Below the pieces are notes generated by a model. The model had not been told where the DNA came from. It made no database searches and was given only the letters and a program-made list of their open reading frames with translations. Shown piece after piece: positions 3,658 to 46,426 of a stretch of DNA of 64,000 nucleotides. The translations under genes were made by a program, and so were the position numbers. This DNA comes from Acidimicrobiia bacterium (lineage in GTDB: Bacteria; Acidobacteriota; Vicinamibacteria; Vicinamibacterales; CAVVIG01): contig VFZL01000014.1 of NCBI GenBank assembly GCA_016871175.1, positions 25,032 through 89,031 of the forward strand, written 5' to 3'. Positions within the stretch are counted from its first letter, which is position 1. Each line of letters starts with the position of its first letter.

Positions 3658-3696
3658 AGAGGACCCATCGGTGCCCCGTTGCCGCCGGCCGCACCT

Positions 3697-5294: not shown

Positions 5295-5329
5295 CGTCCA
5301 GCCCTCAGCCGCGTTGGTGGCCTCGGCTT

Positions 5330-6604: not shown

Positions 6605-6664
6605 CGCTTGAGGATAACGCGATTGGTCGCGGTTCGAAGGGTCGGGGGTTCACGGGCTCTGGGG

Positions 6665-28761: not shown

Positions 28762-30672
28762 TCAATAGGCCATCGCGTAGCAGTCCCGGCGCGGATCGCC
28801 GGCCGCGATGCGATTGCCGTTTGCCGGATCGATCAGGACGGCGGTCGCGCAGCCGGACATGCCGAACTCTCTCAGCCGCCTGACGTCGTGTCCACGCGCT
28901 TGCAGCTCCTTGTACACCGCATCCGACACCGCGGCTTCGACGTTCAGCTTGTTGAGCCCCGTCGTGTGCGGCCAGAACGATCCGTAGAAGTGCTCGGTCT
29001 GGATCCTTGGACGTTCGAGGGCGCCGTGCAAGTTGGGATACCACGCGTCCCAGAACTCGACCGTGCTGAGGAACGCCTGGAGAATCGTCTGGTCCTGATT
29101 GTCGCCGCCAGGGCTGCCGAGCGCCATGAACGGGGCGCCGTTCTTGAAGACGAGGCTCGGGGTCAACGTGTATCGGGGCCGCGCGCGCGGACGGATCTGA
29201 TTGGCTCGCGTCGTGTCGAGGAAGAACTGCTCCCCTCGTACGCTCATGCCGATCCCGGTGTCGCCCAGGATGACCGCCCCGGTGATCCAGCCGCCGCTCG
29301 GCGTGGCATCGAACACGTTGCCATCCTTGTCGACCACCGCGATGTGCGTCGTGTCCTTGCTGACGCCGGTCGAATCGAGCCCGAGTGACGCCTGGACGTC
29401 GGCGACCGGCGGTTGGATGCGGGCACCGTTGGGGGTCAGTTCGGTGACATTCGCCCGCCAGTACGACCACGTCTTCACCTGGTCGTCGTATGTCATCGGA
29501 TCGCCGGCGACGAACGCTCGACTGGCGCGAGAACGGTCGACGAGCCTGGCGCGCTCGCGGGCGTAGGCCTTGGAGAGCAGCCCTTGCTCGGGTGCCTTCA
29601 CGAACGCGGGGTCCGCGTAGTACGTGTCGCGGTCGGCGTAGGCGAGCTTCATGGCCTCGGCGATCGTATGCAGGTAATCGGCGCTCGCATGGCCCATGGC
29701 CTTCAGGTCGAACTGCTCCAGGATATTGAGCGTCTGGAGGAGGAACGGTCCCTGACTGCCGAAGCCGTGCTTGTAGACGGTGTATCCGCGGTAGGTCGTC
29801 TGCGCGGGCGCCTCGATGCGGGCGAAGAACTCGCTGAAGTCAGACAGGTCGAAGGGCGCCTGGTGGCGTTGGAGGAAGTCCACCATCTCGCGTGCGATGT
29901 CGCCCTTGTAGAAGCGGTCGCGCGCCGCCACGATGCCGGCCCTGCGTCCCTTGGCTTTGGCCGAGCGTTCCGCCTCCACCATCCGTTTGAGCGTCCGCGC
30001 GAGGGCGGGCAGACGAATGGTGTCGCCCGCCTTGTAGTGGGATCCGTCCGGCTTGTACCAGGTCTTCTGATTACTGGGCCACTTGTCGATGAGCGGTTTC
30101 TGGTTCTCGATCGCGCGTGCCGTGCTGACGCGCAGCGGGAACCCGCGTTCGGCGTAATCGATCGCAGGCGCCGCGACCTGCTCGAAGCTCATCGTGCCCC
30201 ACGTGTCGAGGACGGTCAGAGCCGCGTGAAGGGCCCCCGGTACCACCGCCGGGTCGAGCCCCTCGCCGAGCAGTGTCTTGCCGCGGGACAGATACCAGTC
30301 GACGTTCACCGCCTTCGGCGCCCACCCTTGGCCGACGACCGAGGTGACCTTGCCCTCCGCACGTGGATAGACGAGCACGAGCGCCTCGCCGCCAAGACCG
30401 TAGAGATCCTGTTCGACAACCCCACCCACGAGCAGCGCGGCGACGCCCGCATCGAAGGCGTTCCCACCCTTGAGCAGTATCGCCAAGGCAGTGGCCGACG
30501 TGAGGGGATGCCCCGCCGACACGCCGCCCGAGGGCCCGGCCACCGCCGGTCGCAAGGGCAGGCCCGCGGCCTGCTGGTCCTGAACCGGCACCTGGGCCCG
30601 CGTCGGAAACGTGACGGCGATAGCGACCGAAAGGACCGTGGCGACGCTCACGTGCACGCGTGTGAAGGTCAT
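28762..30672 (-). CDS. ggt: gamma-glutamyltransferase family protein
   Basis: Start MTFTRVHVSVATVLSVAIAVTFPTRAQ (ATG 30672). GGT-type nucleophile region KDTTHIAVVDKDGNVFDATPSGGW. Confidence 0.85.
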   Translation of the reverse strand: MTFTRVHVSVATVLSVAIAVTFPTRAQVPVQDQQAAGLPLRPAVAGPSGGVSAGHPLTSATALAILLKGGNAFDAGVAALLVGGVVEQDLYGLGGEALVLVYPRAEGKVTSVVGQGWAPKAVNVDWYLSRGKTLLGEGLDPAVVPGALHAALTVLDTWGTMSFEQVAAPAIDYAERGFPLRVSTARAIENQKPLIDKWPSNQKTWYKPDGSHYKAGDTIRLPALARTLKRMVEAERSAKAKGRRAGIVAARDRFYKGDIAREMVDFLQRHQAPFDLSDFSEFFARIEAPAQTTYRGYTVYKHGFGSQGPFLLQTLNILEQFDLKAMGHASADYLHTIAEAMKLAYADRDTYYADPAFVKAPEQGLLSKAYARERARLVDRSRASRAFVAGDPMTYDDQVKTWSYWRANVTELTPNGARIQPPVADVQASLGLDSTGVSKDTTHIAVVDKDGNVFDATPSGGWITGAVILGDTGIGMSVRGEQFFLDTTRANQIRPRARPRYTLTPSLVFKNGAPFMALGSPGGDNQDQTILQAFLSTVEFWDAWYPNLHGALERPRIQTEHFYGSFWPHTTGLNKLNVEAAVSDAVYKELQARGHDVRRLREFGMSGCATAVLIDPANGNRIAAGDPRRDCYAMAY

Positions 30673-31047
30673 GTCGATCTCCCGGCGGGCATGATACTGG
30701 CGACGGCCGGCGAGCGCCATTCTTGAAGAGGCCACCCACTCGAAGCCCATCCGGATCGATGCCATTCGGAGAACGGACGACATCGAGCGTGAATCGCGTC
30801 GATCGGGATGGAACGCCGATCGCGCCCGGGGCGTCCCGCGTTGTCATCGCTCGTCCCGAATCGAGGTGCCTGCAGGTCCCAAGTGCCGACAACGCGCTCA
30901 GAACCGAAATCCGGCCAAGACGGCCACGTCCTGACTCTTTGCTGACTCGAGGAACGGACCGAACACGGAGATGAGCCCCCGCAACGTGGGCTCGTGACCT
31001 CCGGCCTTGACGAATCCAGCCAAAAGATCGTCGCGATCTTTGAAGAT

Positions 31048-31680
31048 CTACGTGAGCCCTTGCGTGAACCGCACTTCGACGAGCAGTCGTCGAAACGTCC
31101 AACCGGCCACGGCCGCCACTGACATCTGCGTCGGGCGCAGCAAGTCTGGCGCCCCGTACGCCAGAAATTGGACCGCGCAGATATTGGTGGCTGGATTCCC
31201 GACCCGCAGACTCGGGTCCGAACTCTTCGCGTCCTCGCCGACCTTGAAGCCGAGGACAGGCCCCGCGGCAGCGTAGAAGCGACTGAAACCTCCTGTGGGG
31301 ATGGTCGCACGCGCCAACGCCACGGCGTCGACGTAGTCCCTTCTGAAAGAGAGCGTGACGTTCTCGTACGGCTGCAGGTCCACTGCATGCTGCCGCCGCG
31401 AGTACAGGAGCTCGCCTTGCACGCCGAACCATCCGGCGATCGGCGCAGCCACGAACACGCCGGCGGTGCCGTTGATGCCAGCTTGCGAATCGACCCTCGC
31501 ATGCGGGAACAACGGGTGACAACAAAGCACCCAATCGTAGTAATCAGCGACCTCGCTCACGGAGGACGACGTGATGCCGGCCTTAGCGCCCCATTGGACC
31601 GACTGCGCGTCGCTCCGCCCCGCGGTCCACACCACGATCGCCACAGCGGCGATTGAAGTCCGAATCACGTCCGTGTTCAT
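31048..31680 (-). CDS. outer-membrane beta-barrel domain protein (porin/OmpW-like), putative
   Basis: Start MNTDVIRTSIAAVAIVVWTAGRSDAQS (ATG 31680). It shows an alternating beta-strand pattern (GVFVAAPIAGWFGVQGELLYSRR...). The upstream part of the track ORF is not protein-like. Confidence 0.55.
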   Translation of the reverse strand: MNTDVIRTSIAAVAIVVWTAGRSDAQSVQWGAKAGITSSSVSEVADYYDWVLCCHPLFPHARVDSQAGINGTAGVFVAAPIAGWFGVQGELLYSRRQHAVDLQPYENVTLSFRRDYVDAVALARATIPTGGFSRFYAAAGPVLGFKVGEDAKSSDPSLRVGNPATNICAVQFLAYGAPDLLRPTQMSVAAVAGWTFRRLLVEVRFTQGLT

Positions 31681-31861
31681 GCTCGCTAACCCTAGATCGC
31701 TTGCGGTCTGCGGTCTGGCCTGCTGCTCGCTGGCCTGTTCGCACCCTACTTCATATCGGCGCTGAATGAACAGTGGACGATTCGCACGAAACGTGGACGA
31801 CTCCCAGCGCACCAGCGAGTGGACCGGCGATCCGCCAAGCGGAGCGGTTCGGGGAGGGCCC

Positions 31862-33103
31862 ATGATGGAGAGACTGATCGCCGTCGCGATGCTCGTCGCG
31901 ACCGCCGCAGCGCTCGCCGCGCAGATGGCACCGAGCGTCACGCGCTTCTGGATCCTGGACGTCGGGGCTATCACCGGCGCCACCGAGCCGTCGCGCGTCA
32001 ATAACAGCGGCGCGATGATCTGGAATTCCGGCGGACACGCCTTCGTGTTCCAGAACTGCCAGTCGCGCGACATCGGACACCTCGGCGGCGGTCGAACCGT
32101 GGCCTGGGCCATTGGGCCCGACGGCAGCGTGGTTGACCGGTCGCTGAATGCCAGCGGAAGGTGGCGGGCTTTCCGCTATGCCGGCGGCGTGATGAAAGAT
32201 CTCGGCGGCGGCGCCTCCAGCACCCTCATCCAGGAGGAGGCGACCGCGACCAATTTCTGGGGCGACGTCGCGGGCGTCGAGTCGGTGGGCGCGACCAACC
32301 TCAGCCCGACCGCGGTGCGCTATCAGGATGGCGGTGCCTATGGAATGGCCTTCGCGTCGCTGCCGCCCGCCGGATTTGTTCGCGTCCAGCACGTGGTCGA
32401 TATGAACGACAGCCGCATGGTACTCGGCGCGGTCACCATCAGCGGCGCGATTACGACGTTCATCTCCAACAACCTTGGCTACCAGTGGACCACCGTCAAC
32501 GGTGTGCCTGGTCGGGAGTTCTCCACGTTTCCCAGCGCGATGAACCGTGTCGGGCACGTTACCGGGACTGCTGGCCAGGGCGTCGTCCGTGCCTTTCTGT
32601 CGCGTGATCCGACGCTTCCGGCGGCGGACCTCGGCACCCTCGGCGGTCCGATCTCAATCGGAAACGGGATCAACAATTACGACTGGGTGGTCGGTTTGTC
32701 GCCACGGGCCTTCGTTCACGACGGGAGCACGATGCACGACCTGAACGACCGCGTTTGGAACGGCACGGGTTGGGAACTGCGCGAGGCGTTTGACATCAAC
32801 GACTTCGGCGTGATCGTCGGCCAAGGCGTGCTGAACGGCGCGAAGCACGCCTTTATGCTGCTGCCAATGTCGCGCTTTCCGCGGACTCCGCCGTGCCTGG
32901 TGACGCACTCAACTCTAACCATATCTAGGAGTTACAGTTCAGACGACAGCCGATCGTCACATCGCAGGGCGCTGACCTGGTCTTACGTGCATGATGGCCC
33001 CACGGCGTCGCCGGACCCCTCTGATGACGTCGGCCGAACCGGCTCGCAGCATGACGCGTCGCCGTGTGCACCTCGACGTGGGCGCCGTGACTTACATCGA
33101 TGA
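31862..33103 (+). CDS. HAF-family extracellular repeat protein; C-terminal tail doubtful
   Basis: Signal peptide MMERLIAVAMLVATAAALAAQ. HAF-like repeats end in AFDINDFGVIVGQGVLNGAKHAFMLLP. The last roughly 75 codons (32870-33103) are not protein-like and cross a locally AT-richer patch. Confidence 0.6.
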   Translation: MMERLIAVAMLVATAAALAAQMAPSVTRFWILDVGAITGATEPSRVNNSGAMIWNSGGHAFVFQNCQSRDIGHLGGGRTVAWAIGPDGSVVDRSLNASGRWRAFRYAGGVMKDLGGGASSTLIQEEATATNFWGDVAGVESVGATNLSPTAVRYQDGGAYGMAFASLPPAGFVRVQHVVDMNDSRMVLGAVTISGAITTFISNNLGYQWTTVNGVPGREFSTFPSAMNRVGHVTGTAGQGVVRAFLSRDPTLPAADLGTLGGPISIGNGINNYDWVVGLSPRAFVHDGSTMHDLNDRVWNGTGWELREAFDINDFGVIVGQGVLNGAKHAFMLLPMSRFPRTPPCLVTHSTLTISRSYSSDDSRSSHRRALTWSYVHDGPTASPDPSDDVGRTGSQHDASPCAPRRGRRDLHR

Positions 33104-33309
33104 GAGGCAGGGCCGACCCGCGGTGCAGCGCCACGTCGTCGCCGTTCTCGAGAACGTCACTCCCTGCGAAGCGCAACCCTGTCCGCTATTCTTTCCTCCG
33201 GGTGATCCACGCTCGCTCGCCGTCCTGGAACTGCCGGCTGGAGCGGGCGTCACGACTGGCATCACCGTGGGATCTGCGGTGATGACCAGGTCGAGCGCAT
33301 CGATCCTCT

Positions 33310-33339
33310 AAAAACGCCGACGGGCGCTGCGCGCCCGTC
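33310..33339 (-). terminator. GC-rich hairpin plus T-tract downstream of the corrected NLR stop (intrinsic terminator and/or DGR-type target hairpin)
   Basis: The minus strand reads GACGGGCGC-gca-GCGCCCGTC-ggcg-TTTTT (9-bp perfect stem 33319-33339, T-run 33310-33314). Confidence 0.6.
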
Positions 33340-33391
33340 AGAGCACAGTGGATCAGCAGTCCAGTGATCAGCGCTATCAGTGAACAGCCGT

Positions 33392-33510
33392 TCAACGGAT
33401 GGGGGAGACACACACCACACGAAACCCGATGAGGCTGCCCCGGTCGACGGGGTCGTAGTTGCCGCGGGACGTCGCGCGCGCTGTCCCGAATGTAGCTCCA
33501 AGACCCGCCG
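33392..33510 (-). other. putative DGR variable-region-like 3' end of the FGE-sulfatase domain
   Basis: In the corrected frame this reads GGSWSYIRDSAR..TSRGNYDPVDRGSLIGFRVVCVSPIR*. 18 of 23 codons after GGSW are NNC (ggc aac tac gac / gtc gac / ggc agc ctc atc). That is the pattern expected from AAC-templated adenine mutagenesis. No matching full template repeat is present in the window. Confidence 0.4.
33398..33431 (-). repeat. copy A of a roughly 35-nt direct repeat (3' end of the NLR coding sequence)
   Basis: The exact 24-mer GGGAGACACACACCACACGAAACC (plus strand, 33403-33426) recurs at 37627-37650. Flanks extend the match to about 35 nt with one mismatch and one 1-nt indel. Confidence 0.9.
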
Positions 33511-36500
33511 CGCAACACCCGGCGCACCCCTTCCAGGTCTGCATTCTCGCGACCATCCTTCGCGTCGTATCGGTACCGCTGGTACGCCGAGCTGGTCCAC
33601 TCCCATACGTTGCCTGCCATGTCGGCAATGCCGTCGGGCGTCTCGCCGTCCGGGAAGATGCCGACTGGGGTCGTACCGCGCACGTGGCTTTCGAACGTGT
33701 TGCAGTGAGTGGCCTCGAACATGTTGCCCCAGGGGTACACGCGGGATCTTCTGAAGGGGTTGAGGCTCACCTGGCTCCCACGCGCGGCGCTCTCCCACTC
33801 CGCTTCCGTCGGGAGCCGCCACGCCTGGCCGGTTTGCGCCGACAACCACGCGCAATAGGCCCGCGCCTCGTGCCAGCACACACCGACCACAGGTTGCGAC
33901 GGGTGGTTGAACGCCGGGTCGTTCCACTGAGCGGGCTGCGTGCGGCGTCCCGCTGGGTACCACTTTTCGAGAAGCTCCTCGAAGGCCGCATCGTTCATCC
34001 GTGCGATGACCTGAAAGCCTTCAGCCTGAGCACTTGTGATGCGACCTTGCCGCTGAAACTCAGGGATGCGATCGAAATGCTCCTGATACAGCTTTCGGTT
34101 TTCGCGCTGTTGCGACTTCGGTCCGTCAGCGGTGCTCTCGCCGCGACGCCAACGCCGCGCGGCTTCTGTCTGCCACCATCGGTCGTCTTCATACCCGCCG
34201 GCCTGCATGAAGAGGCTCCACTCAGCATTGGTCACCGGGAAGCGCGCGATCGCGAAGGCGCCGAGAGACACGTCGTGCGCAGGTCGCTCATCCTCCGGGC
34301 CATCGTCGCGGCCAATGCGATACACGCCAGGAGACACCGCCACGAGCGGTGGCTGCAGATAGTCACCGTGAGGACCGTGTTGGCGCGCGAAGCGAGGATC
34401 GCCGAGTTCGGCCAGAGCCCGGGCCGCAGCGATGCGCGCGAGCAGATCGGCCTCTGGGTCGCGGCTCCGGACCAGCAGATCGCGCGTGAGGGTGCTGCGG
34501 CACACCTCCGAGATCCGCACGTCGGGCTGCGCGGCGCATCGCCCGGCGAGCGGGAGATTGACGGTCATCACCGCGTGGACGAACGAATCGGCGGTGGCCG
34601 ACGCGTGGCCCGAGGCACCATCAGCTGCCGCCATGGGCGAAGCGAGCATGAAGGTGTCCTCCCAGCCAGTTTGAGGCGCCGGCGGGAGTGGGTCGTTGTC
34701 GCTCTCGAACCGCGGCGGCGGCAGCTGCTGCACTCGCCACGGCGTCGCGACGAGCTGCGCGCGATCGGCGAGCGACGACGGCGCCGTAGCGGCGATCGCC
34801 CGTGCGGCGAAATACTCCTGTAGCAGCTGATGGACGAACAGCACCTCGTCGCGCGCACGGTCGTCGTCGAGCACCTGCAACGCGACGCCGGCCTCGAGCA
34901 GCCTGTCGGGCGCGGAGCTGCCGAGGAGGACCCGCGCGAGGTCAAGCGGCACGCGCACTTGCGCGCCCTCGCCGGCCGTCCGCTGCTCCTGCATCCCGAC
35001 GGCGAGCGACGACAACGCGGGCACGAGCGGCCCACGCGCGGGCACATCATACGCGTCGCGCCACGTGGCGTTCACCAGGCGCGCGTGCTCGCGCGCATCG
35101 AAGAGCACGCCCGGCTCGAAGAGCGGATGCTGGGCACGCACCTCACGGTCGAGCGCCTGCCGGAGGAATCTCGTAAAGAGCGCCGCGCGGCCTGGCGGCA
35201 GTGCCCCGTCGGGCTCCGCCTCCGCGACCAGCATCTTGAGATAGAACGGCGGTCGAAAGAGATCGAGTTGCGGCGTGCCCTTCACGTTCCGCCACATCGC
35301 GTCGCCGTGGTCGGGGCTGCACACCAAGAGAAACGACTCGACTTGTTCATCGGACAACCGTTCGATGCGCACGTGCGGCACGGAGAGCTCTGCCGTGGAG
35401 AGCGGCTCGCTATAGTCCAGACTTCGGCACGAGATCACGACGCGCGTGCCCGGCGCGCGTCGTACGACATCGGCAACCAGCCCTCGCCAGAGGCTGACGC
35501 GCTCGCGGTAGTCCTCGCCGCTCGAGTGGGGCATCTCATTGAGAGCGTCGAGCAACAGCACCAATCGCCCGGAGCGTAGCACCACATCAAACGCTGGCAG
35601 GTGCGGGAACTCACGGGACTACTGCGCGGCGAGCCACGCGTCCGGTGTGGGCACGCCTTCACTGGGTGACGCCGCACGATGGCTGCCAAGCCGGACGAAC
35701 ATGGTCCAGCCTCAGGTTCCCGCCGATTCACCTAACGCCGCTGCGGCCAGGTCCAACTCAAGGCGCCGCAGGAGCGTGCTTTTACCGCTCCCAGGAGGGC
35801 CGAGCACGACGATGGCCGGCGCCGTCTCGGCGACGGCGGTGAGCACGTCGCGGAGGTCGTCGAACGACTCGGGTCGGACCTGCCAGCGCGCGCCGTCCGC
35901 GTCGCGGCCCTGGTCGACCAGGAGCGTCAGGCGGGTGAAGCGCTTATCGAGCGCGAACTGCGGCTGTGACCACGCGGCGATGCGATGCAGGCAGAATTCC
36001 TCGTGCGTCCGTGGCGCATGCCGGAGGATGCGGGCCAGGATCTCGTCGGGTGTGCCGGCCGCGACCTCTGCCGCCTCGGGTGGGGACGCGACCCGCTCCC
36101 GCAGCACAGCGAGCGCCTCTAACGTGGCGGCGTCCACGGGCGGCCGAGGACGGTCGTTCAGACTCCAACCGTCGCGCAGCACCAGTCGACAGAGGCCCTC
36201 GAGCGAGTCAAAGGCTGCCCAGTGCTTCCCCGAGGCCTTGATCTCCGCGACGAACGCACGTTGCTGTGACGCCTCGACCTCGGCTTGCGCCGATGGGTGG
36301 GTGCGCAGGAATTGATCGGAGGCGAGGTAGACGTACATCGGTTTCGGCTCAGCACGCTGCCCGTCGAGCCGTTCCCCACGTGCGAAGCCGTACTCCCACT
36401 GCGTGTAGGACCGTGGAGGCGCCCCCTCGGGCACCGCGTCGCCACTCGCTTCGAACCCGTAGGCGTCGCCGACGAGGGCAATCACACGGTCGCAGCCCGC

Positions 36501-36649
36501 CACGTACTCCTCGAGCCGTTCGAGGAGCGTCCGTGGCCCGGTCTGAAAATCCTCCTGGACCTTGACCTCGCAGCCGATGGCGGCGAGGTCGCTGCGTAAG
36601 GCGTCGCGGCACGCCTTGAACTGGGCGGTGACGGCGGACAGGAACACTC

Positions 36650-37120
36650 TCATCGACGCGCCCGAAAGCGTATGCCAAACCAGGCTACCTCGAACAGGTG
36701 CGCGCCTAAGCCCCACGTGTCGCCGTACCGGACATGAGCGAGCCACCCCTGGACCGAGGCGTCGAGCGCCGCGAAGCTGACGTGGCCCGCGTGATACGCG
36801 CCCACGCGGCTCCGTAGGCGTCGAGTGGCCGCACGAACCTTGCGGGCTTTGACACGCCGGTGCGTGGGGAACACCACGAACCCAAGCCATGGAATGCCGT
36901 TGGCGACCGGCTGCACCTGGGCGGCCGACTCGTGCAGCGTGAGTCGCAGACGAGCGAGTCGTTCGATGATGGCGCGCTTCCAGCCCCACAGCGTGCGCGC
37001 GTCGTCGCCGAAGAGGCAGAAGTCATCCACGTATCTGACGTAGGCGCGGCAACCCAGCTGCCGTGTCACGAACTGGTCGAACGAGTGCGTGGTGAAGGAG
37101 GTGAAGTGGTGGCCGATGAG
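36650..37120 (-). pseudogene. reverse transcriptase C-terminal fragment (DGR-type), N-terminal motifs missing
   Basis: ...[27 protein letters not shown] (YxDD at 37019-37042), then [34 protein letters not shown]...[17 protein letters not shown]. About 157 aa are recognisable. Upstream residues of the 330-aa track ORF are antisense to the avd-like gene. The stop overlaps the NLR ATG (ATGA 36650-36653). Confidence 0.75.
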
Positions 37121-37450
37121 ATGGTGATCTTCACGCGCTGTTTCGATCTGCTGACGTGGCTCTTGCCCAAGGTGGACACGTTTCCGCGCGCACACCGTTT
37201 TACCGTGACGAAGCGCCTCATGGACGCTGCGCTCGACCTGCAAGAGACACTGATCGAGGCGCAAAGCCAACGCGGCCAGCCCCGGCTCGAGGCGCTGCGG
37301 GTCGCCGACGCGGCACTCGCCAGGCTGCGTCTGTACTTGAGATTGGCGCATCGATGGCAGTGGATGAGCGTCGGGCAGTATGCCCACGTCAGCGCAGTGG
37401 TGGCTGAGATTGGACGTCTGCTGGGCGGGTGGCTGAAGCAGGCCACATGA
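37121..37450 (+). CDS. avd: four-helix-bundle protein, Avd-like (DGR accessory variability determinant family)
   Basis: [48 protein letters not shown]...[37 protein letters not shown] matches the FPK..RF.L..R pattern of the four-helix-bundle/Avd family. An alternative start is GTG 37109, 7 nt after AAGGAGGTG (37093-37101). Confidence 0.8.
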
Positions 37451-37455
37451 AAGGC

Positions 37456-37491
37456 GGAACGCCTTGAGGCGCGGCGCCCGAAAGGCGTTCC
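37456..37491 (+). terminator. hairpin immediately after the avd-like stop (possible intrinsic terminator)
   Basis: GGAACGCCTT (37456-37465) pairs perfectly with AAGGCGTTCC (37482-37491). The loop is GC-rich and 16 nt long, followed by tgttgtgta. Confidence 0.5.
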
Positions 37492-37621
37492 TGTTGTGTA
37501 TGCGCCCGACGCGCGCGCTGCTGAACGCGCGGCGTGCGGACGGGACGTGCCTGCGCCATCCTGGCTCGTCACCTCGGCCCCCAACCGTGGTCGGGACGCA
37601 ATGCCGGTCTACGCGACGATC

Positions 37622-37656
37622 GATGTGGGAGACACACACCACACGAAACCTCGATG
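37622..37656 (-). repeat. copy B of the roughly 35-nt direct repeat (candidate residual template-repeat 3' end)
   Basis: Non-coding position between the avd-like gene and DUF2971. On the minus strand it reads catcgAGGTTTCGTGTGGTGTGTGTCTCCCAcatc, versus copy A catcgGGTTTCGTGTGGTGTGTGTCTCCCCcatc. The single substitution is A in copy B and C in copy A, and copy B has one extra A. Confidence 0.85.
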
Positions 37657-37678
37657 GCGAGCCCTTGGCTACCCGAAA

Positions 37679-38389
37679 ATGGAAAGCGAGACGATCACGC
37701 TACCGCCTCCGGGAGACTTTCGTCGCGTTTACCACATGATGAAGGCGAAATGGGCGCTCGACGCTGTCGAAGACCAACGTCTCAGGGTCTCCAGGTTCGC
37801 TGACCTCAACGACCCCTTCGAGCTGTTCCCGGTCAATCGCCACACTCACGCCGCCCGAAAAGCCTCGAAGGCATTTGCTCGATATTTCTGGGGCAGGCGT
37901 GGCCTTCTGTCCTTCGGTGGCGACTGGTCAAGTCCGGTCATGTGGAGTCACTACGCTGAAAACCATCGTGGCATCTGCCTGGGGCTCGACGTCCGCAGAG
38001 ATAGCCTGGAGCAGGTCTGCTACGAAGCGGAACGTCTGCGCTTCACATTTGACGAACCCTTCGATCCTGCCGCATGGACCGACGATACGTTCCGAACCTT
38101 CGCCTGTACCAAAGGCCAAGACTGGTCCTACGAGAACGAGTTTCGAAGGCTTATCGATTTGTCGAAGGTGGTGTCCGAACCACCGGACTACTTCATTCCC
38201 TTCGACGATGACATGCGTTTGGCGGAAGTGATCATTGGTGAGCGGTGCGAAGCGCCTCTTGCCCCGACCCGTGAACGCGTTTGCGCGACAGCGCCTTCGG
38301 CCGTGACGTTCAAAGCCCGCCTCGCCTACCGATCGTTTCGCGTGGTTCTGAACGGTCGCACGCGGCCACCTGACTCGCCGCAGGGATAG
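37679..38389 (+). CDS. DUF2971 family protein
   Basis: [49 protein letters not shown]...[19 protein letters not shown] matches the DUF2971 pattern (LR.S....lNDP.E ... mWshYa..h.G.c.g.d). Confidence 0.8.
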
Positions 38390-38806
38390 AACAGCGCGTC
38401 GAACACTGGCGGCCACAGCGGAACGCCCGGTCGCTCAGGCGAAACCTGCGCCGTTGCCGATGCGACACCGAGCGCCGTCACGATGGCCCTGTGTCGACCC
38501 AGGTTCCGACAGCTCCGATCGTCACTCAGTCAACGACGCGGTGACGGACGACCCTCCGCTCGCGTTTGAGCCGGGGCAGGACGGAGGCGTTCCGTCGTGC
38601 CACGAGAGGTGTCGGCGCTGGACACCGACGCGCGTGCCCGCAGCCGTCTTCCCTTGCTACTCGGTGGTGAGCTGCCGCAGAATCGGGCGTGACCACGGCC
38701 CCATCCTCGCTGTCGAAAGGGGGCATGGGGCTGCGTGGGTCCGAGGACGGGCGACAGACCTGATGCGGTGTTCCGCTTCGCAGACAACGCACGATTGGAG
38801 GATGCC

Positions 38807-39679
38807 GTGACACGACGAACGCTGGGCTTCGCGCTGATCACCTTGTCACTGTTGGCCGTGGCCTCGTCTGCGTCGGCGCAGCTCGTCGTCGCCAAGGACG
38901 GCGCCGTGGTGTATGGCCACCATCACCTGAACGTCACGGCGATCGAGCCGCACAAGAAGTTCTTCGTCGATGCGCTCGGCGGGTCAGCCATCAAGATTGG
39001 CACCAACAACCTCGAGATCGTCAAGTTCCCGGGCGTGCTCATCTTCTTCACCCAGCGCGCGCCGACAGGCGGCACGATTGGGACGACCGCCAACCACATC
39101 GGCTTCTCCGTGCCAGACGTGCGGACCGTGGTCGACAGGATAAAAGCGAATGGCTTCAAGATGGTCACCGCCACCGAAGCCGTCGGTCGCCAGGTGAAAG
39201 ACGACATCGCCGCGCCCTTGCAACCCGGCGGAGCGTCCATCGCGTTTGCGCTCGGACCTGATGACGCGAAGGTCGAGCTCGTCGAGGCGCGCCAGCAGAC
39301 CGTCCCGGTCCAACTGCACCACATCCACTTCTTCGCGCAGCAGAACACCGAGATGCAGGCGTGGTACGGGAAGGTCTTCGGCGCCAAGCCACGACGGCCG
39401 GCGGCAGGCGCCGCCTTCGTGTCGTCCGATCTCCCAGGCGTCGCGCTCAACTTCACGCCTTCCCCCACGCCCGTTGTCGGTACGCAGGGACGTGCGGTCG
39501 ACCATGTGGGGTTCGAGGTCCAGAACCTCGACGCGTTCGTCAAGAAGCTCGAAGCGGACGGCATCAAGCTCGAGCGTCCGTACACGAAGGTGGCCGCGCT
39601 CGACATCGCGATCGCGTTTGTCAGGGATCCCTGGGGGACCTACATCGAATTGACGGACGGGCTCGTGAAGGTGCGGTAG
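38807..39679 (+). CDS. secreted tandem VOC (glyoxalase/bleomycin-resistance/dioxygenase) family protein
   Basis: GTG 38807 gives VTRRTLGFALITLSLLAVASSASAQ. There are two VOC-like halves (HHHLNVT...ANHIGFSV and LHHIHFF...VDHVGFEV). Confidence 0.7.
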   Translation: MTRRTLGFALITLSLLAVASSASAQLVVAKDGAVVYGHHHLNVTAIEPHKKFFVDALGGSAIKIGTNNLEIVKFPGVLIFFTQRAPTGGTIGTTANHIGFSVPDVRTVVDRIKANGFKMVTATEAVGRQVKDDIAAPLQPGGASIAFALGPDDAKVELVEARQQTVPVQLHHIHFFAQQNTEMQAWYGKVFGAKPRRPAAGAAFVSSDLPGVALNFTPSPTPVVGTQGRAVDHVGFEVQNLDAFVKKLEADGIKLERPYTKVAALDIAIAFVRDPWGTYIELTDGLVKVR

Positions 39680-39734
39680 GCAAGCTGCACGAGACGCACG
39701 GGTGCGTCAGTTCCTCCTTCGCACGGATGCTGGC

Positions 39735-40745
39735 CTACCGCTTGGTGGTTGCCTCTTTCTCGGCGGCCCGCTGCCCGGAGAGGATGTTCGTCATGCTGTA
39801 GTTCCCCTCGTGGCACGCGTACTCGTACATCGGAAGCTCCGAGCGGCGCAGCGGAATCGCGGCGGTCCAGGGGCTGGTCCACGTCTCCGGATCGATCACC
39901 GTGTACTTGTATTCCAGCGTGTCGGCATCGATGCGCGTTAAGCGCTCGATCAACCGCATGCTCCCGGTCGCGCCTCGCCAACCCCGCTGCTGGTTGAAGT
40001 TGGCGGTTTCGATGGCCAACGTGTCGCCTTCCCAGTGTCCGCGCGAGGCGCCAGACCACTGGCGGATCTGGGGGGGCAGGGCGGGACGTCCGTCAAGCGG
40101 GACGATGCGGGCGGTGTGGATCATTTCGGTGACCAGCGCCACATGATCCTTGGTGAGGGAGATCTGGAGGTTCTGGTTGTAGCCGCCGGGCGTGAGTGGC
40201 GGACCGGCATTGAACCCGACCAGGCACCGGTCCGAGGCGCTGCGGTCCTGCGCCGAATCGGCCGGATGCTCGCGAAGGTAGGCGCGTCGTTCCTCCGCCC
40301 GCCGCTGAGCGGCTGGCGTCAGGGCCGGCAATCGTCCGCTTGGCGGATCGATGACGAGCGAGGTCCGCCGCGTGCCAACCGGCTTGGTGCCGCCGTCCAG
40401 CCAGAAGTTGTTGTAGAAACCGGGTGACCCGTCCTCGCGGAAGTCGACGTTACCGCCGGCGGTCGTCCTCTCGGCCGGACGCTCGTTGAGGCGACGGTTG
40501 CGTTCGATGACATCCTGTTCAGCCTTCGCGGCTTCCTCTTCGGTCAGGAACTCCTTGTTGCCCAGCTCGGCCGGCCGTTCCAGCGGCGTGATGGTGCGGA
40601 AGTCCCAGACACCGCTCAAGTCCGGCTTGCCCCAGGCCGTCCTCGGGACCTTGCTGCCTTGGGCTCCTACAGGCACGGCCAGCCACGACGCCATCACGAG
40701 GACGGCGGCGGCGCGACACACGGAAGCGAGCGGTCGATGGCCCAT
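39735..40745 (-). CDS. conserved secreted hypothetical protein (YEYACHEGNY-motif family), paralog A
   Basis: Start MGHRPLASVCRAAAVLVMASWLAVPVGAQG (ATG 40745). It shares multiple blocks with 59505..60602. Confidence 0.6.
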   Translation of the reverse strand: MGHRPLASVCRAAAVLVMASWLAVPVGAQGSKVPRTAWGKPDLSGVWDFRTITPLERPAELGNKEFLTEEEAAKAEQDVIERNRRLNERPAERTTAGGNVDFREDGSPGFYNNFWLDGGTKPVGTRRTSLVIDPPSGRLPALTPAAQRRAEERRAYLREHPADSAQDRSASDRCLVGFNAGPPLTPGGYNQNLQISLTKDHVALVTEMIHTARIVPLDGRPALPPQIRQWSGASRGHWEGDTLAIETANFNQQRGWRGATGSMRLIERLTRIDADTLEYKYTVIDPETWTSPWTAAIPLRRSELPMYEYACHEGNYSMTNILSGQRAAEKEATTKR

Positions 40746-41030
40746 TTCATCCCCCTGGGAGGTCGCGGCTTTGCGGTTCGATATCACGCCGAGGCTACGG
40801 GGTTCCCTGAGCCGTGTCAAATCGGCAGTCGCAGTGAATAATCAGCCGCTCCAACCGAATTCCAAGCGGGCACCGGATCGACCTCCTGCATTCCGAGGCG
40901 GTGACGCACCTGCCTCCGCATCGTGAAGCCCTGCGCATCTGCGGGGGATCTGCGCCCAGCCTTCGGTCGGGAAAGCTATTGTCCTGGGTCTAGAATTGCG
41001 TCAGTCTTACACGGACACGAGGGTGCCGAC

Positions 41031-42527
41031 ATGCGCAGGACAAGCATTGGTGGCGTCGTCGCGATCGTGCTCTCCGCCGCCGGTCTGGACGGGGCGAGCG
41101 CGGATCTGCGCCTGATCGACGCGGCGAAGCGGTCGGACGTGACCGCCGCGCGCACACTGGTGAAGCAAGGGCTGGACGTGAACACGCGCGCGGGTGACGG
41201 CGCGACGGCCCTGCACTGGGCGGCGTACCGGGATCAGGCGGAACTGGTGCAGCTGCTCATCCGATCGAACGCCGCGGTGAACGCGACCAACGATCTTGGC
41301 GTCACACCCCTCTGGGTAGCCGTCAGCGGCCAGGGCACGGCGACGGTGGAGGCGCTGCTCACGGCGGGCGCGAAGCCGAATCTCGCGCCAGCCACAGGCG
41401 AAACGCCCCTGATGATCGCGTCGCGCACCGGCAATCTCACGGCGCTCAAGCTGTTGCTCGCCCACGGCGCCGACGTCAACGCGAAGGAGGCGGCACGGGG
41501 TCAAACCGCGCTGATGTGGGCCCTGTCGGATCGTCAGCCGCAGGCGGCGAAACTGCTCATCGAAGCGGGGGCCGATCTTCGCGCCCGGACCGTGTCATCG
41601 AAGCAGTTCGTGCAGTTGTGCTGCTCGGAGTACAACGGGGACACCCGGGGCACCGCGTGGGTGGACTACGGGGGATTCACGCCGCTTCTGTTCGCGGCCC
41701 GTGAAGGCGAGCTCGACGCGGCGAGATACCTGCTGGAGGCTGGCGCCGATGTGAACGACGCCGGGGCGGACGGCGCAACCGCCCTCGTGGTGGCTGCCTT
41801 CAGCGGACAGCCGGCCGTGGCGCAGTTGCTCATCGAGCACGGCGCCAATGTGAACGCCGCCGGCGGCGGGTACGCGGCGCTGCACGCGACGGTGCTTCGC
41901 GGCGATCTGAGCCTCGCGAAGTCGCTCATCGCGCACGGCGCGGATTTGAACGTACGGCTCACCAAGGCGACCCAGGCGAGACGGACACATGACGACTTCG
42001 CCTTCGATAAGAAGATGATCGGCGCGACGCCGTTCCTGTTGGCGGCCAAGGACGGCGAGGCCGCGTTCATGCGAGCCTTGGCTGCGGCGGGCGCGGACCA
42101 ATCGATCGGCCGGCTCGATGGCGCGCCGCCGCTGGTCGTGGCCGCGCTGGGCGAGCAGCACGCCAGAAACGCCGTCACCTTCATGGTCGAGCCAGGCCAG
42201 CGGGCAACCCGCGAGGCCGAGCGACGGGCGCTCGAGGCCACAAAGGTCGTGCTCGAACTCGGGGCGGACGTCAACGGCGCGGACAGAGCGGGCGACACCG
42301 CCCTGCACGTGGCCGCGCGTAAGCGGTTCGAGAGCGTCATCCGGCTTTTGATCGACAAGGGCGCCCGCATCGAGCCGAAGAACCAGCTGGGCGAGACGCC
42401 GCTCGCGCTGGCGCTGCGGCCCCTTCCTCCCCCACCGGGCGCTGTGATCGCCACATTCGGCATGGCCCTCACCGACGACGGACCGCGCATCGCCGAGGTC
42501 CTGCGAAGCCTCGGGGCGAAGGAGTGA
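41031..42527 (+). CDS. ankyrin repeat protein (secreted)
   Basis: Signal peptide followed by many G.TALHWAA...LL..GA.VN repeats. Confidence 0.85.
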   Translation: MRRTSIGGVVAIVLSAAGLDGASADLRLIDAAKRSDVTAARTLVKQGLDVNTRAGDGATALHWAAYRDQAELVQLLIRSNAAVNATNDLGVTPLWVAVSGQGTATVEALLTAGAKPNLAPATGETPLMIASRTGNLTALKLLLAHGADVNAKEAARGQTALMWALSDRQPQAAKLLIEAGADLRARTVSSKQFVQLCCSEYNGDTRGTAWVDYGGFTPLLFAAREGELDAARYLLEAGADVNDAGADGATALVVAAFSGQPAVAQLLIEHGANVNAAGGGYAALHATVLRGDLSLAKSLIAHGADLNVRLTKATQARRTHDDFAFDKKMIGATPFLLAAKDGEAAFMRALAAAGADQSIGRLDGAPPLVVAALGEQHARNAVTFMVEPGQRATREAERRALEATKVVLELGADVNGADRAGDTALHVAARKRFESVIRLLIDKGARIEPKNQLGETPLALALRPLPPPPGAVIATFGMALTDDGPRIAEVLRSLGAKE

Positions 42528-42531
42528 CCGG

Positions 42532-45102
42532 ATGGTGAGGCAGACACTCGCGCGCTGGAACGGATCGATCACGATCGTCGCGGTTGGCTGGGCGCTCTGG
42601 TCGCTGCCGACTTCGGTATCCGCTCAGGGCACGCCGAACGCCAGTCGCACCGCAACCTCTCCGGTGCCTGCCGTCGCCACGAACAGCACTGAGGCTGGCG
42701 CGGCGGCGCCCCAGCGCGCGTTGCTCGATCAGTACTGTGTGGCCTGCCACAATCAGCGACTGAGGAGCGGCAATCTGGCGCTCGATACGCCGGACGTGAC
42801 GAAGGTGGGTGCCGAACCCGAGGTCTGGGAACGGGTCGTCCGCAAGCTCCGTCTCAACGCGATGCCACCACCCGGTCGGCCGCGACCGGACGCGGCGTCG
42901 AGCCAGGCGCTTGTCTCGTTTTTGAAGACCGAGATCGACCGGGCAGCCGCTTCCCATCCCAACCCGGGCCGCGTCGACACCTTCCACCGGTTGAATCGCG
43001 CCGAGTACAAGAACGCCGTTCGCGACCTTCTGCTCGTCGACGCGGACGTCGCCTCGCTGCTGCCGGCTGACGACAGCGATCGCCATGGCTTCGACAACAC
43101 GGCCAGCATGTTGTCCGTGTCACCGGTGCTCATCGAGCGCTACCTGTCCGCTGCGAAGAAGATCAGCCGCGTCGCCGTCGGTATGGCCAGCGGCGGGGTG
43201 TCGCGGGACACGTATCAGGCCATCATCTACGAAGTCGAGGACGATCAAGCCAATGCCAGCGACGAGCTGCCGTTTGGATCGCGGGGCGGCGTGGCCGTGC
43301 GTCACACGTTCCCCGTAGACGCCGAATACGAGATCAGCGTGCGCCTGCGCCGCAACGGCTACGACTTCATCGTCGGCTCTGCCGAACCGCATCAGATCGA
43401 GATTCGCCTCGACGGCCAGCGCGTCAGTTCGTTCACCGTCGGGGGCGAGATCAAGGGCACACCCGCGCCGCTCGGGTTCGCCGGGAACCTTCCCGGGTCT
43501 CCCGAATGGGAGCGGTACGTGACGACGTACGACGACAAGCTCAAGGTGCGCGTGCCGGTCAAGGCCGGTGCCCGCAGTGTCGGGGTGTCTTTCGTCTCGC
43601 GGCCGACCAAACCGGAAGGCATCCGTCAGCGACCCGAGACCGTGATGTCGCAGTCGCTGACGTGGGACAACCCGTACGGCAATCCGGCCGTGGAGAACAT
43701 CAAGATCGACGGGCCGTTCCATGCGGCGGGCGTGTCTGACACGCCCAGCCGCCGGCGGCTCTTCATCTGCCAGCCCTCCGGGACGAACGCGAGCGAGGAG
43801 GCCGGCTGTGCGCGGAAGATTCTGGCGCAGGTGGCGCGGCGCGCCTACCGCCGCCCGGTCACCGACGCCGAAGTGGACACGCTGGTCGGCTTCTTTAAGG
43901 CTGGCCGCGGCAAGGGCTTCGACGCCGGCATCGAGCTCGCGCTCGAGCGGATCCTCACCGATCCGAACTTCCTGTTCCGCGTCGAGCGGGATCCGGCGAC
44001 CGCTGCGCCCGGCGCCGCGTACCGGATCAGCGACCTGAACCTCGCGTCGCGGCTCTCCTTCTTCCTGTGGAGCAGCATTCCAGATGACGAGCTCCTCGAG
44101 GTGGCCGTGCGCGAACAGCTGCGGGAGCCGGCCACGCTCGCCCAGCAGGTGCGGCGCATGATGGCCCATCCGAAGGCGAGCGCGCTCGTGGAGAATTTCG
44201 CCGGCCAGTGGCTGCAGCTGCGCAACATCGAACGGGTCGCGCCGAACGAGCGGGCGTTTCCGGAGTTCGGCGAGCTGCTGCGCCGCGCGATGCGGCGAGA
44301 GACCGAGCTGTTTGTCGAACACACCCTGCGCGAGGACCGGAGTCTCCTCGAGCTTCTGACCGCGAACTACTCATTCGTGAACGGGCGGCTGGCACGGCAC
44401 TACAAGATCCCGAACGTGTACGGCGAGCAGTTCCGGCGCGTGACTTTCGACGAGAGCGCGGACCGCGGCGGGCTGCTCGGCCAGGGTAGCCTCCTGACGC
44501 TGACGTCCTATCCCACGCGCACGTCGCCGGTCCTGCGCGGCAAGTGGGTGCTCGAGAACCTGCTGGGAAGCCCACCGCCCCCGCCGCCGCCCAACGTCCC
44601 CGGCCTGCCGGAGCGGGGCGAAGGCGGCAAGGCGGCGTCGGTCCGTGAGCGGCTCGAGCAGCATCGAAAGAACCCGCCGTGCTCGACGTGCCACGCGCCC
44701 ATGGATCCACTCGGGTTTGCGCTCGAGACCTTCGACGCGATCGGCAAGGCTCGGCGCGTGACCGAGGCCGGCTCCCCGGTCGACGCCAAGGGGGCGTTTC
44801 CGACCGGAGAGGTGTTCGAGGGGCTGGCGGGACTCCGGTCCTTCATCCTGGGCCACCGTGATGCCTTCGTCGAGACGGTTATCGAGAAGCTGCTGGCCTA
44901 CGCTCTTGGCCGGGAGATCGAGACCCACGATCACCCCACGATCAGAAAAATCGAGCAGCTCGCGCGCACAACGGACTATCAGTGGTCGTCCGTGATTCTC
45001 GGCATCGTGACGAGCGCGCCTTTTCAGATGCGGACGGCACTGCCGCGGGACGGGCGTGAAGTGGCCGGCGTAGCGGCCCCGGCACGCGGCGGCCAGCGCT
45101 AG
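42532..45102 (+). CDS. DUF1592/DUF1595/DUF1587/DUF1588/DUF1585 multi-domain protein with a cytochrome-c-like CxxCH
   Basis: LLDQYCVACHNQRLRSGNLALD and a C-terminal CSTCHAPMDPLGFALE. It is the classic partner of DUF1552. It ends in a genuine TAG (45100-45102). Confidence 0.85.
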   Translation: MVRQTLARWNGSITIVAVGWALWSLPTSVSAQGTPNASRTATSPVPAVATNSTEAGAAAPQRALLDQYCVACHNQRLRSGNLALDTPDVTKVGAEPEVWERVVRKLRLNAMPPPGRPRPDAASSQALVSFLKTEIDRAAASHPNPGRVDTFHRLNRAEYKNAVRDLLLVDADVASLLPADDSDRHGFDNTASMLSVSPVLIERYLSAAKKISRVAVGMASGGVSRDTYQAIIYEVEDDQANASDELPFGSRGGVAVRHTFPVDAEYEISVRLRRNGYDFIVGSAEPHQIEIRLDGQRVSSFTVGGEIKGTPAPLGFAGNLPGSPEWERYVTTYDDKLKVRVPVKAGARSVGVSFVSRPTKPEGIRQRPETVMSQSLTWDNPYGNPAVENIKIDGPFHAAGVSDTPSRRRLFICQPSGTNASEEAGCARKILAQVARRAYRRPVTDAEVDTLVGFFKAGRGKGFDAGIELALERILTDPNFLFRVERDPATAAPGAAYRISDLNLASRLSFFLWSSIPDDELLEVAVREQLREPATLAQQVRRMMAHPKASALVENFAGQWLQLRNIERVAPNERAFPEFGELLRRAMRRETELFVEHTLREDRSLLELLTANYSFVNGRLARHYKIPNVYGEQFRRVTFDESADRGGLLGQGSLLTLTSYPTRTSPVLRGKWVLENLLGSPPPPPPPNVPGLPERGEGGKAASVRERLEQHRKNPPCSTCHAPMDPLGFALETFDAIGKARRVTEAGSPVDAKGAFPTGEVFEGLAGLRSFILGHRDAFVETVIEKLLAYALGREIETHDHPTIRKIEQLARTTDYQWSSVILGIVTSAPFQMRTALPRDGREVAGVAAPARGGQR

Positions 45103-45115
45103 GAGGACCAGCGTC

Positions 45116-46426
45116 ATGTATATCTCGAAGCTTTCGATTCCGCGGCGCACCTTCCTGCGAGGCGTCGGCACCGCGTTGGCGCTGCCGCTGCTCGATGCGA
45201 TGGTTCCGGCGCTCACCCCCACGGTGAAGACAGCGGCCAAGCCGGTCAAGCGTTTCGGCGTGGTGTACGTCCCGAACGGCATCACGATGGCGGCGTGGAC
45301 ACCCAAAGCGAGCGGGGCTGCGTTCGAGCTGACGCCCATCCTGCAATCGATGGCGCCGGTCCGCGAGCGCATGCTGGTCATCTCGGGGCTCAATGGGGCC
45401 GGCGGATTCGGGCACACCGGTGCCGCCACGGAGTTCCTGACGGGCGTGAAGGTCGAAACCGGCGCAATTGCCGGGCCGTCGATCGATCAGCTGATCGCAG
45501 CCGAGTCCGGGAAAGAGACGCAGCTCTCGTCGCTCGAGCTCGCCATCGATCCGCGCGACGGCACCGGCAATTGCGACGGGCAGAGCTGCGCACTCAGTAA
45601 CACGATTTCCTGGCGCTCGTCGACGCTGCTCCTCCCGATGGAGAACGATCCGCGCATCGTCTTCGAGCGCCTGTTCGGGGACAGTGGCACGAGCGATTCC
45701 GCGGTGCGCCGCGAGCGGCTCCAGCTCGATCGCAGCATCCTCGACTCGGTGACGGCCAGCGTTGCGGATCTGCAGCGCGGCCTCGGAACGGGCGACCGCC
45801 ACCGGATCGTCGAATACCTGGAATCGGTTCGCGATGTCGAACGGCGGATTCAGCGCGCCGAGGAGCAGAGCGCGCGGGAGCTGCCGGTGGTCTCGCAGCC
45901 GGGCGGTATCCCGCGGACGTTCGAGGAACACGCCCGCCTGATGTACGACCTGCAGCTGCTGGCGTTCCAGTGCGACCTGACCCGCGTGACGACCTTCATG
46001 ATGGGCCGCGAGCTGAGCCCACGGACCTACCCGGAGATCGGCATCTTCGAAGCCCATCATCCGCTGTCGCACCATCAAGGCGACCCGATCAAGATCGAGA
46101 ACATCACCAAGCTCAACACTTATCATGTGAGCTTCTTTGCGTCGTACCTGGAGAAGCTGCGGAACACGCCGGACGGCGACGGCTCGCTGCTCGACCACAG
46201 CCTCTTCCTGTACGGCGCGGGGATGAGCGAAGGCAACACGCACGATCACACGAACTTGCCGCTCATGGTCGTGGCTGGGAAGGACTTCGTGCCTGGGGAC
46301 CGTCATCTCATGTTCAACGGCGATCCGGCGGCGAACCTGCTCCTGTCGATCGCCGACAAGATGGACGTCCCCATCGACACACTGGGGAACAGCCGCGGCA
46401 AGCTGCTGTTGCACACGCTGCTCTAG
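45116..46426 (+). CDS. DUF1552 domain protein (Tat-type leader)
   Basis: MYISKLSIPRRTFLRGVGTALALPLLDAM. A GGAGG sits 9 nt upstream of the ATG. Confidence 0.85.
   Translation: MYISKLSIPRRTFLRGVGTALALPLLDAMVPALTPTVKTAAKPVKRFGVVYVPNGITMAAWTPKASGAAFELTPILQSMAPVRERMLVISGLNGAGGFGHTGAATEFLTGVKVETGAIAGPSIDQLIAAESGKETQLSSLELAIDPRDGTGNCDGQSCALSNTISWRSSTLLLPMENDPRIVFERLFGDSGTSDSAVRRERLQLDRSILDSVTASVADLQRGLGTGDRHRIVEYLESVRDVERRIQRAEEQSARELPVVSQPGGIPRTFEEHARLMYDLQLLAFQCDLTRVTTFMMGRELSPRTYPEIGIFEAHHPLSHHQGDPIKIENITKLNTYHVSFFASYLEKLRNTPDGDGSLLDHSLFLYGAGMSEGNTHDHTNLPLMVVAGKDFVPGDRHLMFNGDPAANLLLSIADKMDVPIDTLGNSRGKLLLHTLL

Follow-up and report, generated by a model that had tools for sequence, protein, structure and literature searches.

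A reverse transcriptase remnant, an intact avd gene and a STAND-NTPase pseudogene: very probably the relic of a DGR of the TR-(avd)-RT type

The stretch of DNA analysed here (64 kb, referred to below as the window) carries on its minus strand the 3' remnant of a DGR reverse transcriptase (RT) gene at 36650..37096, which we delimited with a clade profile, tblastn and an alignment to the Bordetella RT (bRT). Only the C-terminal ~40% of the RT survives (window 37096→36650, minus strand), and this part retains palm motif 5 (YVDD), motifs 6-7 and the thumb. Its frame is open over 148 codons, without a stop or frameshift, down to the TGA at 36652-36650, and has a GC3 of 0.80. With tblastn, residues 156-299 of the full-length RT of one relative (locus L001; 307 aa from the first start codon) matched window 37123-36692, and no other match to this RT in the 64-kb window was better than E=0.5. 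A clade RT profile of 361 nodes, derived from the full-length RTs of 80 related loci, aligned its nodes 216-352 with residues 183-319 of the 330-aa ORF in which the remnant lies (window 37096-36686; 220 bits); the homology ends at 37096 and is strong only from 37087. The same profile found no second RT piece in any of the six frames of the window. The Pfam RVT_1 model gave no match to the 330-aa ORF at E≤0.1, and the remnant aligned to residues 198-317 of bRT (8ub7_A, 328 aa) with E=6e-11. A protein search returned 715 homologues, the best of which share 66-70% identity and sit within complete TR/avd/VR cassettes, and a search of metagenomes with the RT fragment, aimed at an intact and closer relative, produced no match above 68% protein identity.

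The missing portion of the RT amounts to 215 of the 361 profile positions and comprises the N-terminal extension, the fingers, catalytic motif 3 and the DGR-specific motif 4. The complete polymerase core of a functional DGR, with its DGR-type motif 4, (I/L/V)GxxxSQ, is thus lacking from the locus; the form of this motif that is invariant among the clade relatives, IGNLTSQ, is absent from the window RT. In the bRT structure it is the N-terminal extension that touches Avd, and the three catalytic aspartates include D138 (bioRxiv 10.1101/2023.10.23.563531). Because the Avd-contacting extension, the D138 region and IGNLTSQ are all missing, the fragment is predicted to be incapable of acting as a polymerase. 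A previous, sequence-only reading of this DNA had confined the RT similarity to the 3' part of the ORF, had considered the 5' motifs absent from the window and had proposed that the fragment be mapped onto full-length DGR RTs; the tblastn and profile matches agree with the first two points, and the profile and bRT alignments supply the map.

On the opposite strand, at 37109..37450 (plus), lies an intact avd accessory gene, recognized by Pfam bAvd PF22296 and by matches in the PDB. Its product of 113 aa, read from a GTG start, matches positions 1-106 of the 107 in the Pfam profile (E=6e-21) and aligns with the Avd structures 4dwl and 8ub7_B (E=2e-6 to 3e-7). The protein is 60-73% identical to the Avd proteins of relatives, and the N-terminus is conserved. 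Since this N-terminus corresponds to the conserved M-A-D/E-E-M-V-I-F-T-R of the relatives, we place the homologous start at GTG 37109. Relatives have a Shine-Dalgarno-like GGAG 6-10 nt before the avd start, and the window has its counterpart, GGAGG, just upstream of 37109. The GC3 of avd is 0.78, compared with 0.675 for the antisense frame. No second avd was found in the 64-kb window. The sequence-only reading had placed an avd-like gene on the plus strand, abutting the point at which the RT is broken, and this holds. The gene is real and complete, and the deletion junction, a strandless interval between the end of the RT homology and the avd start, falls at about 37088..37108. Roughly 0.65 kb (RT codons about 1-215) is missing between this junction and the avd start, and a Shine-Dalgarno-like AAGGAGG upstream of avd, at 37095-37101, has been kept at the junction. 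The residues LIGHHFTS, encoded at 37123-37100, were considered as a remnant of motif 4 (IGNLTSQ) and rejected, since 37109-37123 encodes the conserved start of Avd, VADEM, on the opposite strand. Directly after the avd stop a terminator-like hairpin is present at 37473-37489 (plus strand), whose antisense strand forms the final helix of the spacer RNA described next; this sequence may serve both strands, as a terminator and as a spacer helix.

Between the avd stop and the TR end, the minus strand contains a conserved DGR spacer (Sp-like) RNA region at 37451..37621, which was identified with an nhmmer DNA profile built from more than 70 relatives and covering the 240 nt that follow the 3' end of their avd. 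Its single match in the window is at 37650-37442, minus strand (E=8e-21), and conserved blocks are visible. Across Acidobacteriota, Gammaproteobacteria, Chloroflexota and others the spacer is a conserved, covarying structured RNA. The alignment of this region (A6) covers 34 loci (for example L001 5285-5495 and L003 4475-4685) and yields a structure of 28 pairs in five helices, in which 92% of the cells are paired as against 74% in shuffles, with a covariation score of 0.50 as against 0.19 in shuffled and at most 0.15 in slid controls. A scan of the 64-kb window with Rfam matched no family. The spacer RNA is presumably the counterpart of the BPP-1 Sp RNA, which primes cDNA synthesis and binds RT-Avd.

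Next to the spacer lies what is left of the TR, a stump at 37622..37650 (minus strand) recognized as a 29-nt direct repeat, 97% identical, of the VR end at the 3' end of the target gene (33398-33426 repeated at 37622-37650). All that survives of the TR is its last 29 nt (about 36 nt at most when a 1-nt indel is tolerated), with an IMH*-type end, CTCCCACATC; the VR has the IMH CTCCCCCATC. Where the VR has CCCCCATC, the stump has CCCACATC, and the identical IMH*/IMH difference occurs in L001 and L003, both of which share the C/A end difference CCCACA (TR) versus CCCCCA (VR). TRs of relatives are about 120-135 nt long, and about 100 nt of TR body are missing here; upstream of the stump, beyond 37650, there is no VR similarity, no AAC-rich sequence and no TR body. 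The adenine-bearing part of the TR is gone, and the locus lacks the TR/VR pair differing mainly at TR adenines that marks a functional DGR. A second TR was not found in the 64-kb window.

With these features placed, the 330-aa ORF at 36650..37642 (minus strand) proves to be composite: it runs through TR stump and spacer, continues along the exact antisense frame of avd and ends in the RT 3' remnant. Its C-terminal part is clear RT sequence, including the residues GIPWLGFVV. Its N-terminal 172 residues score -3.4 bits against the clade RT profile and give no Pfam signal either; the sequence-only reading had named an RT-profile hit in these ~170 residues as one observation that would contradict it, and none appeared. 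Over the avd stretch the ORF and avd, on opposite strands, have exactly the same codon boundaries, and the GC1 of 0.78 and GC3 of 0.675 of the ORF frame form the signature of a shadow frame; the GC3 values for comparison are 0.78 in avd, 0.80 in the RT remnant and 0.80-0.82 in the target, in a genome of 66% GC. The unusual length of the ORF would be explained by the fact that the exact antisense frame of a GC-rich gene seldom has stop codons. The earlier suggestion that everything upstream of the RT part is the antisense of avd is correct for 37109-37450 and incorrect for 37451-37642, which is non-coding spacer and TR stump in sense orientation. The ORF is a composite shadow ORF and no gene as a whole, in agreement with the advice of the same reading that it is unfit for annotation as a full RT.

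Downstream of the RT remnant, on the same strand, the target of the DGR is present as a pseudogene at 33392..36653 (minus), which was recognized by its Pfam domains and in-frame translation. Its ATG overlaps the RT stop (ATGA, 36653-36650). It encodes a DUF4062/TIR-like domain, a P-loop/NACHT-type STAND NTPase and an FGE-sulfatase domain with the C-type-lectin fold, a combination typical of DGR targets, and the Pfam matches are to DUF4062 (E=1.4e-10), AAA_16/NACHT and FGE-sulfatase PF03781 (E=2.8e-49). Two in-frame stops, TGA at 35714-35712 and TAG at 35621-35619, interrupt otherwise NACHT-like sequence, and the ORFs of 799 and 425 aa are two pieces of this one pseudogene. The natural stop is at 33394-33392 and is followed by a strong terminator hairpin at 33341-33317. 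A VR with its IMH end occupies 33398..33530 (minus), as located by alignment with TR and VR sequences of relatives. Compared with seven such sequences, the VR shows a single 2-nt gap at about 33474/33475. This deletion shifts the frame, so that the listed ORF runs on to 33186, and the canonical VR ending (…GNYDPVDRGSLIGFRVVCVSPIR*) lies out of frame, in the +1 frame. Instead of the intact target with a 3' VR that belongs to a functional DGR, the locus therefore contains a gene with two stops and a 2-nt VR deletion. The VR domain with the C-type-lectin/FGE fold, which speaks for DGR descent, is still found at the target C-terminus. No second lectin-fold target was found in the 64-kb window. Of the 46 informative relatives, three have a target that is co-oriented with the RT and overlaps the RT stop, so that the window shows a minority form.

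We compared the orientation of avd with that in other members of the RT clade. A scan of species-representative genomes returned more than 583 loci of this clade, of which the best 80, all with a full-length RT, were kept. Among these best 80, avd lies on the opposite strand directly upstream of the RT in 75, and a co-oriented avd occurs in none; in the remaining five avd was undetected, and two of those five have less than 250 nt of upstream sequence. The two starts stand back to back, about 0-30 nt apart (in L003, for instance, avd starts at 5025 and the RT at 5040, with only 14 nt between them), and the TR lies beyond the avd 3' end, at a median of 240 nt. Of the 49 loci in which the TR could be oriented, 46 have its adenine-specific mismatches on the RT strand and three on the avd strand. 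L001 illustrates the complete cassette, with VR1 at 4861-4987, TR at 5197-5323, avd at 5492-5848 (minus), RT at 5890-6813 and VR2 at 6928-7053 (minus). The relatives span Acidobacteriota, Gammaproteobacteria, Chloroflexota and others. In the three loci with the TR on the avd strand (L044, L049 and L053; T-type mismatches) the TR is only 45-110 nt beyond avd, and these constitute a second sub-architecture within the clade, in which avd and then TR are divergent from the RT.

The predominant layout is the TR-(avd)-RT architecture named B3 by Wu et al. 2018 (PMC5758913), who found it mostly in CPR bacteria. In the window, the minus strand reads TR stump (37650-37622), spacer, avd on the plus strand (37109-37450) and RT remnant from 37096, so that avd lies opposite the RT and between TR and RT, as in B3. 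The sequence-only reading expected avd, TR and RT to share one orientation, a premise that does not hold in this RT clade, and the inversion plus deletion that it proposed can be separated into a part that stands, the deletion (the RT 5' part is indeed missing), and a part that does not, the inversion, as a divergent avd is the norm of the clade. Since the window is collinear with the B3 layout, deletion alone suffices and no inversion is needed. The full form of that proposal starts from a canonical co-oriented avd-TR-RT cassette in which avd was inverted and a deletion occurred, with one breakpoint inside the RT. It would account for the head-to-head meeting of avd and RT fragment within about 10-20 nt and for the loss of the RT 5' half. 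However, the head-to-head arrangement is the conserved state of the clade, shared by all 75 relatives in which avd was detected, with 0-30 nt between the two starts; the order and orientation of TR stump, spacer and avd are native; no inverted repeats flank avd; and inversion would be an extra, needless event. We therefore consider this account very improbable.

An invertible, phase-variable segment whose alternative orientation restores the RT, also raised by the sequence-only reading, can be excluded. A search for inverted repeats bracketing avd (37100-37460) found none, and a single orientation is seen in all assemblies. Flipping the avd segment could not restore the RT, because neither of its strands encodes an RT N-terminus.

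The proteins of the locus are also present in JGI and Logan assemblies, and the locus could be compared with overlapping assemblies from six other runs or samples: SRR7053297, SRR7990526, ERR14789950 (together with ERR14789951), JGI 3300020193, ERR14822414 and ERR14822415. The contig from SRR7053297 (L004) covers window 35879-39827 and has no differences from it; that from SRR7990526 (L143, of which L137 is a shorter cut) covers 29900-39827 with 1 SNP; that from ERR14789950 (L142) covers 29630-39827 with 16 SNPs and no indels; that from ERR14789951 (L138) covers 33601-39827 with 9 SNPs, identical to those of L142 in this span; that from JGI 3300020193 (L139) covers 34254-39748 with 1 SNP; and those from ERR14822414 (L140) and ERR14822415 (L141) cover 37331-38748, with 1 SNP and a 1-nt gap at 37480, and 37399-38489, with 1 SNP. 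The ERR14789951 contig equals that of ERR14789950 wherever the two overlap. All of these assemblies are collinear with the window, and the gap in L140 is the sole difference in length. The RT/avd junction and the TR stump are unchanged in four assemblies (L004, L143/L137, L142/L138 and L139); L140 and L141 begin within avd (at 37331 and 37399, respectively) and extend over TR stump and spacer only. Both target stop codons are unchanged in L143, L142 and L139, with L004 starting above them at 35879, and the 2-nt VR deletion is present in L142 and L143, both of which cover the VR. The three Logan contigs L004, L142 and L143, from different runs, all end exactly at window 39827, a position inside or next to a minus-strand ORF at 39735-40820, which suggests a repeat or strain-variable site there.

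The RT/avd junction is not an assembly artefact. The idea that it is one, or that it represents a minority structural variant in a population whose real locus has an intact RT and TR, draws on the origin of the sequence from a metagenome-assembled genome and on the observation by Doré et al. that long reads revealed intact structural variants of some 'degenerate' loci (PMC10907252). Against it, the contigs of six other runs or samples are collinear apart from the 1-nt gap in L140, four of them span the junction, one collinear contig comes from a strain distinguishable by 16 SNPs, and the nonsense codons of the target independently indicate loss of function. Taken as a whole, this explanation is very unlikely.

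The strain represented by L142 differs from the window by its 16 SNPs in 10.2 kb. One of them creates an extra nonsense codon at 33498, inside the VR, where the conserved W of GGSW becomes a stop. With the exception of this G-to-A nonsense change, the VR is identical in three assemblies, and no adenine-type differences were seen between the assemblies covering the VR. Two of the strain SNPs fall in the RT fragment, and one of these is non-synonymous (window 36687, V to A). Judged from these sequences, the pattern looks like that of a fixed relic decaying neutrally, and it speaks against a diversification that still goes on in trans. Such diversification is the core of a further alternative, in which the degenerate or remote target locus is served by a complete DGR elsewhere in the genome, avd and Sp belonging to a system that still works. 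In its favour, degenerate loci of this clade are reported to be diversified in trans (PMC10907252), an IMH-type end persists in the VR, and neither avd nor the spacer is damaged. Nevertheless, with two or three nonsense codons and a frameshift in the target, diversification would be pointless; the VR sequences agree between assemblies bar the one nonsense change, with no adenine-site pattern; and the searches of the 64-kb window for a second RT, avd, TR or lectin-fold target were negative. We give service in trans a very small probability.

It is also conceivable that the RT thumb fragment or avd has acquired a new role, for example as a leader ORF translationally coupled to the target or in an Avd-only function. 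The frame of the RT remnant is open with its GC3 of 0.80, its stop overlaps the target ATG (ATGA), and gene callers predict a product of 139 aa. But the downstream gene to which it would be coupled is a pseudogene, one of the two strain SNPs in the fragment changes an amino acid, stand-alone thumb fragments that share a conserved start, and so form a family, were not found, and the short database homologues are independently disrupted RTs, through an insertion in L002/L003 and an integrase trio in L006. A new role of this kind is exceedingly improbable.

The abundance of ~145-150-aa RT fragments among the homologues looked like a hot spot of RT breakage, an explanation rejected on account of the separate causes in L002/L003 and L006; a selection bias is involved as well, as a query consisting of the C-terminus only favours such fragments. 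In L003 (5040-6273) and L002, from two MAG assemblies, about 120 nt of extra sequence between 'YPGDD' and 'NPFDHF' interrupts the RT and results in separate ORFs of 237 and 148 aa; the insertion may be MITE-like. In L006 (1629-6474; ENA ERZ25039600 contig_20116) three tyrosine-recombinase (Phage_integrase) genes lie side by side at 2825-5846 and separate the N-terminal from the C-terminal part of a related DGR RT, which looks like the insertion of a recombinase-trio element into the RT.

Taken together, the locus is very probably a degenerate, non-functional DGR of the TR-(avd)-RT type (architecture B3). It is DGR-derived by descent, given the RT homology, the Avd, the IMH and IMH* ends and the lectin-fold VR. 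The ancestral cassette would have read, on the minus strand, TR, Sp spacer RNA, avd on the opposite strand, RT and a co-oriented STAND-NTPase target with a C-terminal lectin-fold VR, and five independent lesions have accumulated since. A single deletion of ~0.65 kb removed RT codons about 1-215, ending a few nucleotides from the avd start; lost with it were the fingers, the N-terminal extension that contacts Avd, the first of the catalytic aspartates and IGNLTSQ, the motif for adenine mutagenesis. A second lesion cost the TR about 100 nt and left the 29-nt stump; two nonsense mutations in the NTPase domain of the target are the third and fourth, and the 2-nt deletion in the VR is the fifth. 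While these steps are shown by the window sequence and its comparison with relatives, we infer from them that mutagenic retrohoming could not start from the locus, because it has neither a polymerase core nor a template, and that the intact avd, the spacer and the RT thumb portion are leftovers yet to decay; the cause proposed above for the length of the 330-aa ORF is likewise inferred.

Two observations fit this reading less well, namely the co-oriented target overlapping the RT stop, as a minority form, and the absence of lesions from avd, spacer and RT remnant. The latter points either to recent deletions or to residual selection on some part, with few SNPs available. Avd and spacer together have no lesions over 0.5 kb and few strain SNPs. 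That avd and the structured spacer RNA have been retained by selection, for example as a helper for a DGR RT elsewhere or in an RT-independent role of Avd, is highly doubtful. We conclude that the locus is an ordinary, fixed DGR relic of known architecture.

The locus matters mainly to annotators. The label of reverse transcriptase is wrong for the 330-aa ORF, the ORFs of 799 and 425 aa belong to one pseudogene, and an avd gene opposite and beside a DGR RT is the standard layout of a large, widespread DGR clade rather than a rearrangement. The locus adds a further example of the piecemeal decay of DGR cassettes that target STAND-NTPase sensors. The relic has as neighbours, all on the plus strand, genes for a DUF2971 protein (37496-38389), a glyoxalase-family protein (38735-39679) and an ankyrin-repeat protein (40923-42527), followed at 42532-46426 by a gene pair encoding PSD/PSCyt (DUF1592/1588/1587/1585/1595) and DUF1552 proteins; this set of neighbours fits Planctomycetota or Acidobacteriota better than the label 'Acidimicrobiia' carried by the MAG.

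In comparison with known systems, the B3 DGRs (PMC5758913) resemble the window in having a target with an FGE/C-type-lectin VR and an IMH/IMH* pair, but the window differs from them in an RT without 215 of the 361 profile positions, a TR without about 100 of about 130 nt and a target that is a pseudogene. The hosts differ as well: the B3 systems of Wu et al. are mostly from CPR, whereas the relatives identified here belong to Acidobacteriota, Gammaproteobacteria, Chloroflexota and others. The RT clade includes the DGRs of Thiohalocapsa PB-PSB1, whose chromosome is one of our loci (L037). In this organism, Clade 5 DGRs diversify STAND-NTPase/CLec 'antigen sensor' proteins (Doré et al. 2024, PMC10907252), so that both the RT clade and the kind of target (TIR-like/NACHT/nSTAND plus CLec) are shared with the window. 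PB-PSB1 also has 'degenerate' loci, in which the RT, TR or accessory gene is missing or pseudogenized (PMC10907252). Most of these still have VR diversity, in trans or through intact variants, and their disruptions are tied to transposons and MITEs (PMC10907252), whereas in the window the breakpoints show no mobile element, the target is dead and the VR is static across samples. In the DGR of Bordetella phage BPP-1 (mtd-avd-TR-brt; 8ub7, 4dwl), unlike in the window, avd, TR and brt all point the same way, the target is a phage tail fibre and the RT is complete; the BPP-1 RT and Avd are nevertheless homologous to those described here, and this DGR has, like the window, a structured spacer RNA downstream of the TR.
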